This document shows, one piece after another, positions 1 to 4,588 of a stretch of 4,982 nt of DNA. Source of the stretch: a virus (taxonomy: Duplodnaviria > Heunggongvirae > Uroviricota > Caudoviricetes); IMG/VR virus record IMGVR_UViG_3300029499_000043; one strand, 5' to 3'. The translations under genes and the position numbers were made by a program. How positions within the stretch are numbered: the first letter of the stretch is position 1; each line of letters opens with the position of its first letter. The notes beneath the pieces are model-generated. The model was not told where the DNA came from, did not search any database, and worked only from the letters and a program-made list of their open reading frames with translations.

Positions 1-101
1 GTCGGCGAAGGTAAGTTGATGACTCATGATGAACCCTGTTCCATGGCTCCAGATGACAAACATGATCTCATATCAGGGACTTGTTCGCACCTTCCCTAAC
101 A

Positions 102-503
102 TTATCCCTGATAAAATGCCAGTATGCGCTGCATAACTTCACTCATCCGGCACTCGCGACAGATTATGTTTAGGCGACTGTCGTAGCGACGTATTTCTCC
201 ATCAGGTAACGACCAGATAAGGTCTGGATCAACCACAGCTGTTTTCTTCACCTTTGCCCTCGAGAGTTTTTTGCGGGCGTTTTGCCAGTCCTTACGCGCC
301 TGTTCAGACGGGAATAACCCGTAGCCGGAGTTGTATACATCGCCACTGGCTACCAGCTCTCTGGCAAGAACGCTCATCAGATATCTAGTCGCACCTGTTT
401 TAGCTTCCAGTTGCCGTAACGTCTCACGACCGCTCTGGCGCACGAGTTCCACCACCTGCCCTTTAATTTTTTCCCGCTCTTCTTGTGTAAAAACTTTTGC
501 CAC
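102..503 (-). CDS. Hypothetical prophage protein, 133 aa, basic; last gene of the replication module. Function not recognised.
   Basis: Intact ORF in the track. The start codon is GTG at 503..501, preceded by a strong Shine-Dalgarno (AAGGGGGA, about 3-4 nt upstream). It lies 40 bp downstream of the replication gene on the same strand. No motif I can name. Confidence 0.55.
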   Translation of the reverse strand: MAKVFTQEEREKIKGQVVELVRQSGRETLRQLEAKTGATRYLMSVLARELVASGDVYNSGYGLFPSEQARKDWQNARKKLSRAKVKKTAVVDPDLIWSLPDGEIRRYDSRLNIICRECRMSEVMQRILAFYQG

Positions 504-543: not shown

Positions 544-1509
544 TTATCCTCTGAAACCAGGCGGAATTTCTGTATCCGGTTCAGAAATATGATTAACACA
601 ACGCTGTACAGGTGAACGCCCCAGGCGGATGACCAGTTCGTCCCATTTTTCGCGGAGCTTTGACGGGCTCATGATGTTTTTTACCCAGAATGGATCCCGC
701 TGTACCCGACCAAACATTTCACAAATTTGTCTGTGGCTTCTGCCATCCAGCATCCGCATTGTGCGCACATCATTGGCCCAGACAGTCCAGTTAGGCTCTT
801 TTGGTCGCATGATCTCGCCATCATCACTGGCGGCCTGTTCGTAGAGACCCACGATCCGCCCCCATATCCACTGCGCACACGCCAGATCCTCCTGGCTACC
901 CCACTGGCGTTTTTTCGCACTAAACACAACTGCGCCAGGGTGCCGGATTAAAAAATCCTGTTCAGCCGTCTGCGGGTCCGGTTGCGAAGCTTCCGGACGA
1001 AAAGTGTTTTTATTCTCTGTAGTAATCTCTGTTGTATTCTCTGTAGGATCATCGGGCCATTTTGACCCGATGACATTGGGTCGTTTTGAACCAATGGAGC
1101 GTTTCATTTTGACCTCTTCCATCGTGTCATTTTGACCTGATGGAGCGGCGCATTTTGAACCGATGGATTCGCTCAATTTGCCATCATCTAAAAGCTCGCT
1201 TCCATAGTTAATCGTGTAGAAATTGGTCATATCGCGCTTTGATTTATTGAGCTTTTCACAACGCAAAAGCCCCAGCGTTTTCAGACTTGCAAACGCGCGC
1301 TTTAACGTTGACTCTGACCAGAATGGGAACTGTTCCAGCCATTGTTCCGTTGTGTTGTAAATCCAGCGAACACCATCACATTCCATGCCGGAATTGGTAT
1401 CTCTCAACCAGTAATGCAACTGCTGCAACACAATGGCTTCATTTAAGCCAATCTTCATCGCAAGCTGTGTGTTTATAACCAGTGGGCGTTCAGCAAAAAG
1501 AAGGCTCAT
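544..1509 (-). CDS. Phage replication initiation protein (lambda O-like / replisome organiser), with an N-terminal helix-turn-helix region and an internal iteron-encoded linker. The track ORF starts at TTG 1563; the more likely start is ATG at 1509..1507 (MSLLFAERPLVINTQLAMKIGLNEAIV...).
   Basis: 339-codon ORF in the track. The N-terminal segment resembles the DNA-binding domain of phage replication initiators/replisome organisers. The gene contains five direct repeats (iterons) and an AT-rich repeat block, as the lambda O gene contains ori-lambda. It sits immediately downstream of the cII-like gene, the canonical lambdoid position for O. Confidence 0.75.
   Translation of the reverse strand: MSLLFAERPLVINTQLAMKIGLNEAIVLQQLHYWLRDTNSGMECDGVRWIYNTTEQWLEQFPFWSESTLKRAFASLKTLGLLRCEKLNKSKRDMTNFYTINYGSELLDDGKLSESIGSKCAAPSGQNDTMEEVKMKRSIGSKRPNVIGSKWPDDPTENTTEITTENKNTFRPEASQPDPQTAEQDFLIRHPGAVVFSAKKRQWGSQEDLACAQWIWGRIVGLYEQAASDDGEIMRPKEPNWTVWANDVRTMRMLDGRSHRQICEMFGRVQRDPFWVKNIMSPSKLREKWDELVIRLGRSPVQRCVNHISEPDTEIPPGFRG
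1011..1047. repeat. Three tandem 12-bp repeats (TATTCTCTGTAG / TAATCTCTGTTG / TATTCTCTGTAG) in an AT-rich tract next to the iterons. Candidate DNA-unwinding or accessory-factor element of the origin.
   Basis: Read directly from the sequence. Encodes the repetitive peptide TENTTEITTEN in the initiator linker. Its position relative to the iterons mirrors the iteron plus AT-rich layout of ori-lambda. Confidence 0.45.
1058..1172. repeat. Five iteron-like direct repeats (candidate origin of replication) embedded in the replication-initiator coding sequence. Consensus on the + strand is CATTTTGA(A)CC-N-GATGG.
   Basis: TTTTGA cores begin at 1060, 1084, 1107, 1130 and 1154, giving a regular 23-24 bp spacing. 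On the coding (minus) strand they translate to the repeated peptide motif SIGSK / IGSK. A sixth degenerate copy may lie at about 1173-1188. Confidence 0.6.
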
Positions 1510-2011
1510 AATTCCATCCAGCTTTTTGTTGGTATTGCTGTCGATACGCAAGTTTGAAAGCAATTGCTTTTTCTATAAGTTCGTCAGTTTCACGATCCAC
1601 TACGGCAGGATCAGCAAAAAGCAGTCCGGACTCCACCACATCGCCATATTCTTTGTTTAACCCGGCGATCATGTACGTGATGCTTTTTCCGTCACTAATT
1701 TCACGATACAACCTGAAATCATTAATCCGGATAGCCTCCATAATTGCAGGCACTAGCGCCGTGAACTTTTCACGCTTATCCCTGGTGTCGATAGCCTTCC
1801 AGCGTTCGAATATCTTCACTCGATTAACGCCAAGCGCTCGCTGATCAACCGCGCCACCTTCATCTGTGACACGCTGAACATCGATGTTCGGGCGCTCTTT
1901 CAAAGCCCAGAATGCTTCAGTGATTAATATCGTCGCCTGCTCCTGTGTCATTCCTGGTCGACATATCCAGGCATCCAGAGCCTCACGAGCCTGTTCAGGA
2001 GTGATTTTCAT
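1490..2011 (-). CDS. YdaT-like (CII-like) prophage regulator, 173 aa. Likely corresponds to the full-length form of the ydfX region of Qin.
   Basis: ATG start at 2011..2009; intact ORF. It lies directly downstream of the cro-like gene on the same strand, in the cI-cro-cII order. The 3' end overlaps the replication gene start by about 20 nt and the 5' end overlaps the dicC-like stop by 17 nt. The YdaT family assignment is from recollection of the protein family, not a search. Confidence 0.7.
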   Translation of the reverse strand: MKITPEQAREALDAWICRPGMTQEQATILITEAFWALKERPNIDVQRVTDEGGAVDQRALGVNRVKIFERWKAIDTRDKREKFTALVPAIMEAIRINDFRLYREISDGKSITYMIAGLNKEYGDVVESGLLFADPAVVDRETDELIEKAIAFKLAYRQQYQQKAGWNYEPSFC

Positions 2012-2222
2012 TGTTCAACCGCCCCGCCCGCTTCGTCTTACGATATTCGTCATAAACCTTGGGATCATACAGAAGCTCGCCGCCAGATGCCTCCTGTAGA
2101 CGCATCGCGCGACCTTCAGGAACCAGCTCTTGCCATTGAGAAACAGCAGATGGGTCAACGCCAGCAGCTTTCGCTACTTTGGCTTTCGTACCGTAAAAAT
2201 TAATTACGTCTGATTTAAACAT
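1995..2222 (-). CDS. dicC: Cro-like small DNA-binding regulator (DicC/YdaS family), 75 aa from ATG 2222 (MFKSDVINFYGTKAKVAKAAG...). The track ORF begins at an upstream TTG at 2249.
   Basis: Shine-Dalgarno GGAGG about 4 nt upstream of ATG 2222 on the minus strand. Divergent from the repressor gene. The C-terminal segment (LVPEGRAMRLQEASGGEL...YDPKVY...NNENHS) matches my recollection of DicC. Size about 76 aa, as for DicC. Confidence 0.75.
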   Translation of the reverse strand: MFKSDVINFYGTKAKVAKAAGVDPSAVSQWQELVPEGRAMRLQEASGGELLYDPKVYDEYRKTKRAGRLNNENHS

Positions 2223-2299
2223 CGCACCTCCAGTATTGAGTTTTCTCAATGCTAATCACTCAAGGAATCTCAAGTCAAGGGTTATTAAGATATCTAAAT
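2223..2299. promoter_or_regulatory. Divergent promoter/operator region between the cro-like (dicC) and repressor (dicA-like) genes. Contains operator-like motif copy A, TTGAGTTTTCTCAA, at 2236..2249, and CTCAAG direct repeats.
   Basis: 77-bp intergenic region between divergent starts. Motif A is an inverted repeat (TTGAG-TTTT-CTCAA) that recurs twice upstream of ydfA (2772..2785 and 2809..2822). Confidence 0.55.
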
Positions 2300-2707
2300 A
2301 TGAACGAGAAAACTTTAGGTCAACGCATTAGAGAAAGACGTAAGCAGGTAGGTTTAAGTCAAAACGGTTTAAGCAAAGCTGCTGGCGTATCTGGCTCATC
2401 AATTTCATTATGGGAAAGTGACCATACAGCCCCGCGCGGGCAAAATTTGCATCGCCTCGCCGAGGTATTGCAATGTTCACCAACCTGGATACTGTTTGGC
2501 GACGAGGACAAAACACCAGCTCCCCCTGTTTCACTCGATAGTGCCTTAGACTTATCGGAAGATGAGTTAGAGATGCTGCGTTTGTATCGCGCACTTCCTA
2601 AATCAGAGCAACAAGCACAACTCAGCGAACTCCGCGCCCGCGTTGAGAATTTTAATCGCCTGTTCACCGAGCTATTAGAGGCTCGCAAACGCAACAAGCA
2701 TCAATAA
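2300..2707 (+). CDS. dicA: DicA-like HTH (XRE-family) prophage repressor, 135 aa from ATG 2300 (MNEKTLGQRIRERRK...). An alternative upstream ATG at 2249 would give 152 aa.
   Basis: The N-terminal region has a clear helix-turn-helix signature (QRIRERRKQVGLSQNGLSKAAGVSGSSISLWESD). The VLQCSPTWILFGDEDK segment and the C-terminal region match my recollection of DicA. The 135-aa length equals that of DicA. No strong Shine-Dalgarno for either start, so the start is uncertain (possibly a leaderless or short-leader transcript, as for cI). Confidence 0.8.
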   Translation: MNEKTLGQRIRERRKQVGLSQNGLSKAAGVSGSSISLWESDHTAPRGQNLHRLAEVLQCSPTWILFGDEDKTPAPPVSLDSALDLSEDELEMLRLYRALPKSEQQAQLSELRARVENFNRLFTELLEARKRNKHQ

Positions 2708-2794
2708 TCATCCCTTCACAAAATTTTAAAGCCTTACATTTCAATGTATTGGCTTTATCTTGCGCCAATACTTGAGTTTTCTCATCAAAAAGCC

Positions 2795-2823
2795 TTGACG
2801 AAAAATAATGAGAAAACTAAATT
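2795..2823 (+). promoter_or_regulatory. Candidate sigma70 promoter of the ydfA-dicF-dicB operon (PdicB-like): -35 TTGACG at 2795..2800, 17-bp spacer, -10 TAAATT at 2818..2823. Flanked by operator-like copy B (2772..2785) and overlapped by copy C (2809..2822, inverted).
   Basis: Hexamers and spacing read from the sequence. An operator overlapping the spacer and -10 is the classic repressor arrangement. Promoter strength is not computable here. Confidence 0.5.
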
Positions 2824-2899
2824 ACCTCCATCAACACACCGCACGGTGTTCTCAGCAAACAGTTCCGCTACCCCGGCGTTAAGGGGAAATGAGGTCAGC

Positions 2900-3055
2900 A
2901 TGGATACTATCGATCTTGGCAACAACGAATCTCTGGTGTACGGCGTGTTTCCAAACCAGGACGGCACGTTCACCGCAATGACGTATACCAAAAGCAAAAC
3001 GTTTAAAACCGAAAATGGTGCCCGTCGCTGGCTGGAAAGAAACTCAGGTGAGTGA
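2900..3055 (+). CDS. ydfA: YdfA/YdaF-family small prophage protein (DUF1391-like), 51 aa (MDTIDLGNNESLVYGVFPNQDGTFTAMTYTKSKTFKTENGARRWLERNSGE).
   Basis: Internal ATG of track ORF 2744..3055. Shine-Dalgarno GAGG at 2891..2894, 5 nt upstream. The 51-aa size and sequence match my recollection of the YdfA/YdaF family. First gene downstream of the repressor on the early-left side. Confidence 0.8.
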   Translation: MDTIDLGNNESLVYGVFPNQDGTFTAMTYTKSKTFKTENGARRWLERNSGE

Positions 3056-3056
3056 T

Positions 3057-3632
3057 ATGGATTTCGACACAATCATGGAAAAGGCTTACGAAGAATACTT
3101 CGAAGGCCTTGCCGAAGGCGAAGAAGCTCTCAGCTTCAGTGAGTTTAAACAGGCACTCAGAATAAGAATGCGCTCTCACAATGACGCGGAGCACAAATAT
3201 GAGAAGCAAAATCAGACCGCAGAAAATTTTGTTCTGGAACCCGGAGAAACGCTTTTCAAAATTCCCGTTACGTGCCCCATTTGCGGTTTTACATCAGAAG
3301 AACTTGACGACTCCTGTAACAATCAGGAAACAACCAAGTATGTCGAAGATGATACCGAGTGCGCACGAAGAACGATTATATCCACGAGTCCAAACTCCAG
3401 GACCAATAAATCTCACTTTGAGAGGGTGATTAATCCACTCCCCCAAACCAATAAAAAAGATGCCGGAGGACAAAAAAACCAATGGAACAACGGGATATCT
3501 GTCAAAAAAAGACGTTCCATTAAAGACAAACAACGCAGCGCCAACAACTGTAAGCGCTTTATACCAGTAATCAATTTTCATGTTCTTAAGCGGATTTATT
3601 GGTGGTTGCGACATTGCTTAATGAATCCTTAA
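3057..3632 (+). CDS. ydfB/ydfC-like early gene(s). One uninterrupted frame from ATG 3057 (MDFDTIMEKAYEEYFEGLAEGEEAL...) with a second in-frame ATG at 3168 (MRSHNDAEHKYEKQ...). The true 3' extent is uncertain: the C-terminal 80 codons are K/N/R-rich low complexity over A-tracts.
   Basis: Shine-Dalgarno AGGTG 6 nt upstream of ATG 3057. The start is 1 nt after the ydfA stop, which suggests coupling. In K-12 this region is annotated as two small genes (ydfB, ydfC), as far as I recall. Here no stop occurs until 3630..3632. The tail contains poly-A runs at 3453..3458, 3472..3478 and 3504..3510. Confidence 0.5.
   Translation: MDFDTIMEKAYEEYFEGLAEGEEALSFSEFKQALRIRMRSHNDAEHKYEKQNQTAENFVLEPGETLFKIPVTCPICGFTSEELDDSCNNQETTKYVEDDTECARRTIISTSPNSRTNKSHFERVINPLPQTNKKDAGGQKNQWNNGISVKKRRSIKDKQRSANNCKRFIPVINFHVLKRIYWWLRHCLMNP
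3294..3614 (-). CDS. Candidate small membrane protein, 106 aa, with three predicted hydrophobic helices, antisense to the 3' part of the ydfB/C-like frame. Possibly a superinfection-exclusion or holin-like protein; possibly an artefact.
   Basis: ATG at 3614..3612 with AAGGA about 11 nt upstream on the minus strand. Hydrophobic segments are ALTVVGAALFVF, VVPLVFLSSGIFFIGLGEWI and ALGIIFDILGCFLIVTGVV. Caveat: an antisense reading of lysine/asparagine-rich A-tracts automatically yields Phe/Leu-rich hydrophobic stretches. Confidence 0.3.
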   Translation of the reverse strand: MSQPPINPLKNMKIDYWYKALTVVGAALFVFNGTSFFDRYPVVPLVFLSSGIFFIGLGEWINHPLKVRFIGPGVWTRGYNRSSCALGIIFDILGCFLIVTGVVKFF

Positions 3633-3891
3633 AACTGTGGTGATTTTAAGGATACCACCTCGCCTGACGTGGTTAAAAGCAGGCACACAACACGAAAGCG
3701 CACGGCGAAGTTCGTCTCACTGTACGGTGTCGTCAAATTTAATTCGACCGTGCGCTTCCGGTTGTGGCAACCCGCGAAATGGCGCGGCGGTAAGTATGGC
3801 GGGGTTATTCCTTCCCCGTTGAGGACACCGAGTTGTCAGGTTGACCATACGCTTAAGCGACAACCCCGCTGCAACGCCCTCTGTTATCAAT

Positions 3892-3949
3892 TTTCTGGTG
3901 ACGTTTGGCGGTATCAGTTTTACTCCGTGACTGCTCTGCCGCCGTTTTT
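3892..3949 (+). ncRNA. dicF: DicF small regulatory RNA (Hfq-dependent antisense inhibitor of ftsZ translation), including its intrinsic terminator: stem GGCGG 3907..3911 with CCGCC 3939..3943, then T-tract 3945..3949.
   Basis: The sequence TTTCTGGTGACGTTTGGCGGTATCAGTTTTACTCCGTGACTGCTCTGCCGCC followed by TTTTT matches the roughly 53-nt DicF RNA as I recall it, almost base for base. It lies in an ORF-free stretch immediately upstream of dicB, as in Qin. Confidence 0.85.
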
Positions 3950-4118
3950 AAAGTGAATTTTGTGATGCGGTGAATGCGGCTAAGCGCACGCGGAACAGTT
4001 AAAACCAAAAACAGTGTTATGGGTGGATTCTCTGTATCCGGCGTTAATTGTTAACTGGTTAACGTCACCTGGAGGCACCAGGCACTGCATCACAAAATTC
4101 ATTGTTGAGGACGCGATA

Positions 4119-4307
4119 ATGAAAACGTTATTACCAAACGTTAATACGTCTGAAGGTTGTTTTGAAATTGGTGTCACTATCAGTAACCCTGTATTTACTG
4201 AAGATGCCATTAACAAGAGAAAACAAGAACGGGAGCTATTAAATAAAATATGCATTGTTTCAATGCTGGCTCGTTTACGTCTGATGCCAAAAGGATGTGC
4301 ACAATGA
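4119..4307 (+). CDS. dicB: DicB cell-division inhibitor (acts with MinC on FtsZ), 62 aa (MKTLLPNVNTSEGCFEIGVTISNPVFTEDAINKRKQERELLNKICIVSMLARLRLMPKGCAQ).
   Basis: Strong Shine-Dalgarno GAGGA at 4107..4111, 7 nt upstream of ATG 4119. The 62-aa length and sequence match my recollection of DicB. Located downstream of DicF. Confidence 0.9.
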   Translation: MKTLLPNVNTSEGCFEIGVTISNPVFTEDAINKRKQERELLNKICIVSMLARLRLMPKGCAQ

Positions 4308-4495
4308 ATTCAGCATTTGCGCTTGTTCTGACAGTTTTTCTTGTTTCCGGAGAGCCAGTTGATATTGCAGTCAGTGTTCACAGGACAATGCAGGAGTGTA
4401 TGACTGCAGCAACCGAACAGAAAATTCCCGGTAACTGTTACCCGGTCGATAAAGTTATTCACCAGTATAATATCGAAATCCCGGCAGGTCTTTAA
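4304..4495 (+). CDS. ydfD: YdfD, a small prophage lysis protein with a hydrophobic N-terminus, 63 aa (MNSAFALVLTVFLVSGEPVDIAVSVHRTMQECMTAATEQKIPGNCYPVDKVIHQYNIEIPAGL).
   Basis: ATG 4304..4306 overlaps the dicB stop TGA 4305..4307 (ATGA overlap). Shine-Dalgarno AAGGA at 4291..4295. The 63-aa size and sequence match my recollection of YdfD. The track ORF 4250..4495 is an N-terminally extended version of the same frame. Confidence 0.85.
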   Translation: MNSAFALVLTVFLVSGEPVDIAVSVHRTMQECMTAATEQKIPGNCYPVDKVIHQYNIEIPAGL

Positions 4496-4588
4496 AACAG
4501 TTCCGTAATAAATATCCGGTTTCATTCTTATATGCCAGCAATGGCAGGGATTTGTTCATCCTTAAATCTGTCATGAGGTTAAAACAAA

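Follow-up and report, generated by a model that had tools for sequence, protein, structure and literature searches.

Probable operators of a heteroimmune DicA/DicC switch in a Qin/mEp460-like lambdoid prophage

The window, which is the whole 4982-bp stretch of DNA analysed here, matches a segment of the chromosome of E. coli SCU-482 and of many other strains with 100% identity. It is part of a lambdoid prophage of the Qin/mEp460 type at the Qin site. One side of the prophage carries the late and lysis genes, cspI/cspB, rem, and hokD. The other side carries exonuclease, xis, and int, followed by rspB. The window contains the following genes and elements.

1-94: end of an IS5 element
102-503, minus strand: DUF977/Ren-like gene
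544-1509, minus strand: O-like replication protein
1490-2011, minus strand: YdaT/cII-like gene
1995..2222, minus strand: cro-like gene, dicC homolog, 75 aa (Pfam P22_Cro, 3e-16; PDB 1RZS, P22 Cro, 2e-12)
2300..2707, plus strand: dicA-like repressor gene, 135 aa (Pfam HTH_3, 2e-15)
2900..4495, plus strand: controlled early-left operon ydfA, DicF, dicB, ydfD, running on into exonuclease, xis, and int
2900-3055, plus strand: ydfA
3893-3944, plus strand: DicF RNA (Rfam, 72.5 bits)
4119-4307, plus strand: dicB
4304-4495, plus strand: ydfD

The names dicC, dicA, ydfA, DicF, and dicB had been given to these genes in an earlier, sequence-only reading of the window. They are correct, as indicated by the matches to P22_Cro, HTH_3, and the Rfam DicF family, and by the Pfam matches of the early-left operon genes (DicB, DUF1391, and DUF1482). 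For a 106-aa ORF on the minus strand, Pfam and PHROGs searches returned no match. The HTH_3 repressor gene and the P22_Cro homolog are divergent and separated by a 77-bp spacer, and the ydfA-DicF-dicB-ydfD operon lies directly 3' of the dicA-like gene. The Pfam search of the 135-aa repressor showed only HTH families and no S24 self-cleaving domain. The repressor therefore belongs to the DicA/Gifsy short-repressor subclass. The gene for Rem, 98% identical to K-12 Rem, is found at 7599-7850 of the 29-kb prophage locus (L001).

The sequence-only reading had proposed that a 14-bp operator-like motif occurs once at the divergent promoter and twice at the promoter of the operon. A pattern search recovered all three copies, with A and B at the positions given there. 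Copy C had been placed at 2809..2822 with one mismatch; the site is real, but its coordinates were one base off (a 13-nt match with 1 mismatch), and the full 14-mer occupies 2808-2821. Copy A lies, as described, between the two start codons, that of the dicC-like gene (minus strand, 2222) and that of the dicA-like gene (2300). The predicted sites and promoters are as follows.

2236-2249: predicted operator A, TTGAGTTTTCTCAA, a palindrome taken as reference (0 mismatches); equivalent to K-12 Oc, OR1-like
2249..2278, minus strand: predicted dicC-like promoter (PR-like), with -35 TTGACT at 2278-2273, an 18-nt spacer, and -10 TAGCAT at 2254-2249
2260-2273: candidate weak operator O2, TCAAGGAATCTCAA, with 2/10 half-site mismatches and a perfect right half-site; equivalent to K-12 Om
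2285-2298: candidate operator O3, TTAAGATATCTAAA, with 2/10 half-site mismatches; equivalent to K-12 Oa, OR3-like
2772-2785: predicted operator B, TTGAGTTTTCTCAT, with 1 mismatch to A
2795..2823, plus strand: predicted ydfA-DicF-dicB promoter (dicBp, PL-like), with -35 TTGACG at 2795-2800, a 17-nt spacer, and -10 TAAATT at 2818-2823
2808-2821: predicted operator C, ATGAGAAAACTAAA, read on the minus strand as TTTAGTTTTCTCAT, with 2 mismatches to A

Copy A is a perfect 5+4+5 palindrome, TTGAG-TTTT-CTCAA, which widens to a perfect 16-mer, ATTGAG-TTTT-CTCAAT, at 2235-2250. Copy C differs from the reverse complement of copy B at one position. The centres of A, B, and C are all TTTT or AAAA. The centres of B and C are 36 bp apart, about 3.4 helical turns, which differs from the 24-25 bp of adjacent cooperative lambdoid sites. 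Extending the motif search to the prophage, as the sequence-only reading had suggested, revealed no further good copy in the 29-kb locus, and no third site is present upstream of B at up to 2 half-site mismatches.

A consensus scan of 2150-2950 found one sigma-70-like promoter per strand, whose starts are predictions. On the minus strand, copy A overlaps the final base of the -10 and spans the predicted start at ~2242. It is followed by the Shine-Dalgarno sequence GGAGGT and then by the ATG at 2222. The -35 of this promoter (AGTCAA) is kept in other immunity types. The dicA-like ATG has no visible Shine-Dalgarno sequence. On the plus strand, copy B ends 9 nt upstream of the -35, with its centre at about -51, and copy C begins 7 nt downstream of the -35 and extends from the spacer 4 nt into the -10. 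B and C had been said to bracket or overlap the -35/-10 of a candidate ydfA-dicB promoter, and they do so at the sole promoter predicted on the plus strand in 2150-2950. The half-site CTAAA of copy C, where the consensus has CTCAA, is part of the -10 region CTAAATT, which is common to other immunity types. This deviation is thus explained by the double duty of these bases as the -10 region, not by decay. Homology to other immunity types resumes at 2817-2829. The conserved operon leader at 2829-2899, examined as a structured nut-like RNA, showed only one covarying pair.

In the divergent spacer, O2 and O3 were found by the half-site pattern with the centre left free. The centre-to-centre distances are 24 bp for A-O2 and 25 bp for O2-O3, and these steps between the predicted sites correspond to the spacing of lambdoid OR sites. 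O2 is within the spacer of the minus-strand promoter, and O3 ends 1 nt 5' of the dicA-like ATG. O3 is identical at 13 of 14 positions to the P22 consensus core TTAAGATATCTTAA (core from PMC5175364). Both are weak matches that, from sequence alone, look no different from chance; the half-site-only pattern, with up to 2 mismatches, matches 6 times in the whole window against 2.9 expected. It is probable that the divergent region holds three sites (A, O2, and O3) in an OR-like three-part operator, two of which were missed in the sequence-only reading. In K-12 in vivo, only Oc bound DicA by itself, and Om and Oa did not (PMC3441716).

The comparison with K-12 Qin by blastn revealed flanks of 98% identity (1732-2123) and 99% identity (2829-3157) on either side of an exchanged segment.

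2124..2828: immunity cassette, 705 bp, running from the HTH codons of the dicC-like gene through the OR-like spacer and the dicA-like gene to the PL-like promoter and its predicted operators

The junctions at 2123/2124 and 2828/2829 are sharp. The cassette cannot be aligned to K-12 except for 2465-2530 (66 bp, 82% identity), which encodes the invariant VLQCSPTWILFGDEDK motif. The left junction is within the cro-like gene, just past the HTH, and the right one coincides with the predicted +1 of the leftward operon. A, B, C, O2, O3, the repressor gene, and the Cro HTH are all inside the cassette. The operators, the repressor, and the Cro HTH thus appear to have been exchanged together, as is classically seen in lambdoid immunity regions.

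The relationship between operators and proteins was analysed in DicA-family loci from E. coli genomes and from other species. The site of each locus was picked by its anchored position; the automatic choice of the best palindrome was noisy and often returned unrelated AT-rich palindromes. In each immunity type, a distinct 5+4+5 palindrome occupies the corresponding positions.

K-12 locus: operator TTAGY-N4-RCTAA, DicA recognition helix SHVSVSQWER
Loci L005, L017, L019, L007, and L018: operator TTAGR-N4-YCTAA, DicA recognition helix AHVTISQWER
Window type: operator TTGAG-TTTT-CTCAA, DicA recognition helix (V)SGSSISLWES
Loci L012 and L013: hybrid TTGAG-N4-TTAAA sites, DicA recognition helix xxISLWES

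In the cross-match matrix, the window-type operator occurs at exactly 2 sites downstream of dicA in every window-type locus. It is absent from K-12-type and TTAGR-type loci, where the best match has 3-4/10 mismatches, and the reverse searches separate the types alike. The recognition helices of the DicC/Cro-like proteins also change in step with the operators. Across these loci, the predicted operator half-sites therefore covary with the recognition helices.

Conservation within the window type was analysed in an alignment of five loci: one from Buttiauxella gaviniae, one from a MAG, and three E. coli variants, the most distant at 91% identity. In 2752-2828, variable columns account for 6 of 36 in B, the -35, and C/-10, versus 32 of 41 in the remainder (Fisher 7e-8). 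Copy B has 3/14 variable columns, against 15/20 and 7/9 in the adjoining DNA. Among the five relatives including Buttiauxella, copies A and C have 1/14 variable columns each, O2 has 3/14, and O3 is invariant. The repressor of Buttiauxella gaviniae is 74% identical; its locus retains CTGAGTTTTCTCAA at A and B and TTGAGAAAACTAAA at C amid diverged DNA.

Could the copies be chance repeats in AT-rich intergenic DNA, without function? The loose motif test leaves some room for it: at least 3 matches to the 14-mer at up to 3 mismatches were seen in 10 of 200 shuffles, which is weak, and the half-site counts given above are in line with this. The sharper test is the 13-nt word common to the two intergenic regions (2223-2299 and 2708-2899), a length reached in just 4 of 5000 dinucleotide shuffles; the sharing of this word between the two regulatory regions is significant. 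Chance also fails to account for sites that are conserved amid diverged flanks, that occupy the positions of the K-12 operators, and that covary with the repressor across immunity types. It retains almost no probability. A different explanation concerns B and C, which form an inverted repeat and could be an RNA or DNA hairpin that ends or attenuates read-through from dicA, instead of protein sites. The region 2708-2830 does fold with a B/C stem (-23.2 kcal/mol, z = -4.3), and in Buttiauxella the outermost B/C position is altered on both sides with complementarity retained. However, no T-run follows C, and a terminator scan around dicA found nothing. The 3' arm is upstream of the predicted operon start, and the hairpin would therefore be absent from the operon mRNA. 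In locus L003, a T to C change in the centre of B is uncompensated, and in K-12-type and TTAGR-type loci the site centres are non-complementary (TATA/CATG, TCAA/TTAT, and TTTT/CTAT). Copy A would be left unexplained. A hairpin in place of protein sites is thus highly improbable.

A further alternative is that only the Cro-like DicC homolog, or a host nucleoid protein drawn to the A-tract, binds the sites, with the repressor acting elsewhere or only at A. ChIP-seq of K-12 DicC gave peaks with an inferred site on either side of dicA and the palindromic motif TT(A/C/T)G...C(G/A/T)AA (PMC11430063), and the covariation of DicC-like recognition helices with the operators is compatible with this explanation as well. 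For K-12, one source calls the DicA site at dicB "low-evidence, location unknown" (PMC7567609), and the K-12 dicBp sites therefore rest on sequence and genetics rather than on direct DicA binding. The genetics, however, point to DicA: in K-12, deletion of dicA derepresses dicBp 22-fold, and deletion of dicC has no effect on the repressed level (Ragunathan 2023, PMC10448788). A host factor would not covary with an exchangeable phage cassette. Since lambdoid repressors and Cro proteins share operators, DicC and DicA binding are complementary, not mutually exclusive. That the Cro-like protein or a host factor is the only binder is considered quite improbable.

It is very likely that A, B, and C are the operators of a heteroimmune DicA/DicC switch of the P22 type in a Qin/mEp460-like lambdoid prophage. 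B and C, which belong to one sequence family with A, make up a second operator-like set, located at the early-left promoter. The proposal that a single DicA-like repressor controls both the cro-like gene and the DicF/DicB operon is supported by the K-12 geometry, the cassette, the covariation, and the footprint, all of which are features of the sequence.

From the sites observed here, with their positions, conservation, covariation, and cassette structure, we infer how the repressor binds, where transcription starts, which sites each protein prefers, and what Rem does. A dimer of the DicA-like protein would bind (A)TTGAG-N4-CTCAA(T) with one HTH per half-site. The A-tract centre would probably be uncontacted, as in P22 c2 on TTAAG-N4-CTTAA; the binding mode would be that of P22 c2, but the half-site code would differ and a narrow A-tract minor groove may be needed more strongly. 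The repressor on A, at the -10/+1 of the rightward promoter, would shut off the cro-like, cII-like, and replication genes. The K-12 analogy suggests that it may, in addition, stimulate transcription from its own weak promoter, which would yield an almost leaderless mRNA. The repressor on C, in the spacer and the -10, and on B, at about -51, would block the leftward promoter to RNA polymerase, leaving ydfA, DicF, DicB, YdfD, exonuclease, xis, and int unexpressed. On the same sites one also expects the Cro-like protein, a point absent from the sequence-only reading; it would probably prefer O3, the site at the dicA start, which would make the switch bistable. As the repressor has no peptidase domain, release probably occurs via the Rem antirepressor and not via RecA cleavage. 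The presence of the rem gene together with the lack of an S24 domain makes induction by Rem the likely route, as in K-12 (PMC10448788).

A more specific scheme, with two partly separate operator codes for the repressor and the Cro-like protein and with Rem acting across heteroimmune DicA repressors, is conceivable but rather unlikely. The repressor may read the TTGAG half-sites plus an obligatory A4-tract centre by the shape of the minor groove. It lacks Val33, Gln37, and the two acidic residues with which P22 c2 reads the centre, and Arg46 is new. The Cro-like protein, with its P22-Cro-like helix SAVSQW, may prefer the nearly P22-type O3 (TTAAG-ATAT-CTAAA), the site at the dicA start. The conserved Rem may target the C-terminal half, which is conserved among heteroimmune DicA repressors. 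If Rem does act across types, Qin-like prophages of different immunity would be cross-inducible.

This immunity type is carried by about 800 complete E. coli genomes (~797 of 5426) and by at least two viable phages. A full-text literature search on the motif strings returned nothing relevant. The architecture is already known from K-12 Qin, and the allele in the window is almost certainly, as judged by its sequence relationships, a differently specific version of the DicA/DicC switch that silences DicF/DicB. Since 1986-88, the model for K-12 has been one repressor at both the divergent promoter and dicBp (Bejar and colleagues, cited by PMC10448788 and PMC3441716), and the understanding of the system is therefore unchanged. 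The result is not surprising; its value lies in annotation and in a data point on specificity. The map of predicted operators with coordinates allows a forecast of which Qin-like prophages are heteroimmune, and it shows targets of mutation that may release or lock the DicF/DicB division inhibitors in carrier strains. The natural series of TTAAG (P22), TTAGY/TTAGR (Qin types), and TTGAG (window type), each with a change in the recognition helix, is a data set on HTH specificity.

The closest known system is Qin of K-12, which shares with the window the chromosomal site next to rspB, the gene order, and the architecture of the 135-aa repressor. From its predicted +1, the dicB operon is within the nearly identical (98-99%) flanks. 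In K-12, the single repressor DicA controls both dicC and dicBp (PMC3441716, PMC10448788). Operator sequences resembling lambda PR and PL have been reported at both regions (PMC10448788). K-12 Oc, TTGTTAGTCATAACTAACAA, binds DicA in vivo, and a single base change abolishes the binding (Yun 2012, PMC3441716). Its core, TTAGT-CATA-ACTAA, is 17 nt from the dicC ATG, whereas copy A is 13 nt from the ATG. The K-12 dicBp region is stated to contain three operator sequences (PMC10448788), but only two sites are recognisable in the sequence; they were read from the sequence in this analysis, guided by that paper. Upstream of ydfA, K-12 has TTAGCTATAGCATA, 9 nt, TTGACC, 6 nt, and TTAGTCATGGCTAA, the last overlapping the -10 TAATCT. 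This is the layout of B, the -35, and C. The gaps to the -35 are 9 nt upstream and 6 nt downstream in K-12, and 9 and 7 nt in the window; the site centres are 35 bp apart in K-12 and 36 bp apart in the window. The promoter is TTGACC, 17 nt, and TAATCT in K-12 and TTGACG, 17 nt, and TAAATT in the window. The K-12 operators and the predicted sites of the window are alike in number and placement: one strong and two weaker (in the window, the candidates O2 and O3) at the dicC promoter, and two around the -35/-10 of dicBp.

The differences from K-12 are in specificity and gene content. The DicA-like protein is 57% identical to K-12 DicA; the recognition helix differs, while the VLQCSPTWILFGDEDK motif and the C-terminal region are conserved. 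The DicC-like protein is 71% identical to K-12 DicC, with a different HTH. No site for the K-12 Oc core was found in the dicA-ydfA spacer of the window at up to 2/10 mismatches, and the reverse search likewise found none. Because the operators (TTGAG-TTTT-CTCAA versus TTAGT-CATA-ACTAA) do not cross-match, the two types should be heteroimmune. The prophage of the window keeps the cII-like and O-like replication genes, exonuclease, xis, and int, which have been lost from K-12 Qin.

P22 is the structural reference. Residues 1-72 of the repressor align without gaps to the N-terminal domain of P22 c2 (PDB 1ADR, 2R1J, and 3JXB; 8e-16), and the Cro-like protein is homologous to P22 Cro (1RZS). The P22 operators have two half-sites of 5-6 bp around a 4-bp centre, with the consensus ATTTAAGATATCTTAAAT, the same 5+4+5 layout as in the window. 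The P22 c2 dimer binds this consensus with Val33 and Gln37 sitting in each TTAAG half-site. The 4-bp centre is uncontacted and read indirectly, with Glu44, Asn46, and Glu48 nearby; P22 c2 binds an A-tract centre best, and the N46A protein binds that centre only (PMC5175364, PMC4267663). From P22 c2 to the window repressor, the recognition residues change by N32G, V33S, Q37L, E44A, N46R, and E48Q, and the half-site changes from TTAAG to TTGAG. The window repressor lacks the P22-type C-terminal S24 peptidase/oligomerisation domain and has a DicA-type C-terminus instead. Unlike in P22, the leftward promoter has only two recognisable sites.

Repressors of the Gifsy type (GfoR/GftR; Lemire 2011, as cited in PMC10448788) are likewise short, non-cleavable, and controlled by an antirepressor, and the prophage of the window has the Gifsy-like trait of a candidate antirepressor gene, rem, in the same prophage. 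The closest relatives are two viable phages, mEp460_ev081 (LR597641.1) and HannyBb (PP925841.1). They are 99.3-99.5% identical to the window over 1995-2830, and their repressor is 100% identical. In the literature searched, no description was found of the operators of these phages or of the window allele. Their early-left operon is the same as in the window, and the switch shows no differences; they are free phages, whereas the window belongs to a chromosomal prophage. Ragunathan et al. described homologs of DicA, DicC, DicB, DicF, and Rem in mEp460_evo81 (PMC10448788).

A short conserved element lies between the dicA stop codon and operator B, one of the predicted sites of the DicA-like repressor.
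2735-2748: perfect 5+4+5 palindrome TACATTTCAATGTA, downstream of dicA and upstream of operator B
This is a second perfect 5+4+5 palindrome, and its sequence is unrelated to the operator motif. Only 4 of the 17 alignment columns at 2735-2751 are variable; in the flanking DNA, 18 of 27 vary on one side and 15 of 20 on the other. The diverged locus of Buttiauxella also retains the string TTTCAATGT.TTG. Loci of other immunity types carry similar strings at the same position (CATCAATGAGTTAT, TTTCAAGTGATTAG, and TATCAGTAAGTTAA). Its occurrence in more than one immunity type makes a role as a repressor operator unlikely. The strings resemble the IHF consensus, WATCAR-N4-TTR. In E. coli, the element is also within a weak AAAGCC...GGCTTT hairpin.

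The record of phage HannyBb (L031) gives different starts for the two genes flanking this region. Its coordinates 3755-4213 and 4250-4561 correspond to 2249-2707 and 2744-3055 of the window. There, the ATG chosen for the repressor (152 aa) lies inside operator A and that for ydfA (103 aa) precedes the promoter, while the RefSeq starts are 2300 and 2900, respectively. Both the alignment of the family and the location of the promoter agree better with 2300 and 2900 than with the starts in the HannyBb record.

The 29-kb prophage locus L001 also encodes an antirepressor.
L001, 7599-7850: rem (antirepressor), product 98% identical to K-12 Rem
In contrast to Rem, the repressor encoded at 2300-2707 is just 57% identical to its K-12 counterpart, and most of the differences fall in its DNA-binding half. 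Should Rem be active in this prophage, its target must be the conserved part of DicA-type repressors, and prophages of different immunity could be induced by it.

Downstream, the segment 3158-3674 stands in place of the K-12 ydfB C-terminus and ydfC. Two ORFs overlap it on opposite strands.
3057-3632 (+): 191-aa ORF, annotated in RefSeq
3294-3614 (-): 106-aa ORF
The 191-aa product has a basic, low-complexity C-terminal half. The 106-aa product has three hydrophobic stretches resembling membrane helices and may represent an antisense "moron" gene overlooked by annotation. Neither ORF has a match in Pfam. Only the 191-aa ORF has a PHROG family, which could itself be a product of gene calling.

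The left edge of the window is derived from an insertion sequence.
1-94: end of an IS5 element
79-94 (-): IS5 terminal repeat GGAAGGTGCGAACAAG, followed by CTAA
In many genomes, the match to the window begins only at base 95, indicating that the IS5 insertion is strain-specific. This E. coli prophage region, with a 100% identical repressor, also occurs in two contigs (L009 and L010) from MAGs labelled "Bacillota bacterium" and "Veillonella parvula", most likely as a result of binning contamination.

The operon leader (2829-2899) is almost identical across immunity types. An alignment of eight loci contains only one covarying pair in it, and the leader has no match in Rfam. Two candidate elements lie within it.
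Within 2829-2899: 5' hairpin ACACCGCACGGTGT
Within 2829-2899: string GTTCCGCTA, then a CCCC...GGGG hairpin
The latter combination bears a loose likeness to boxA/boxB.
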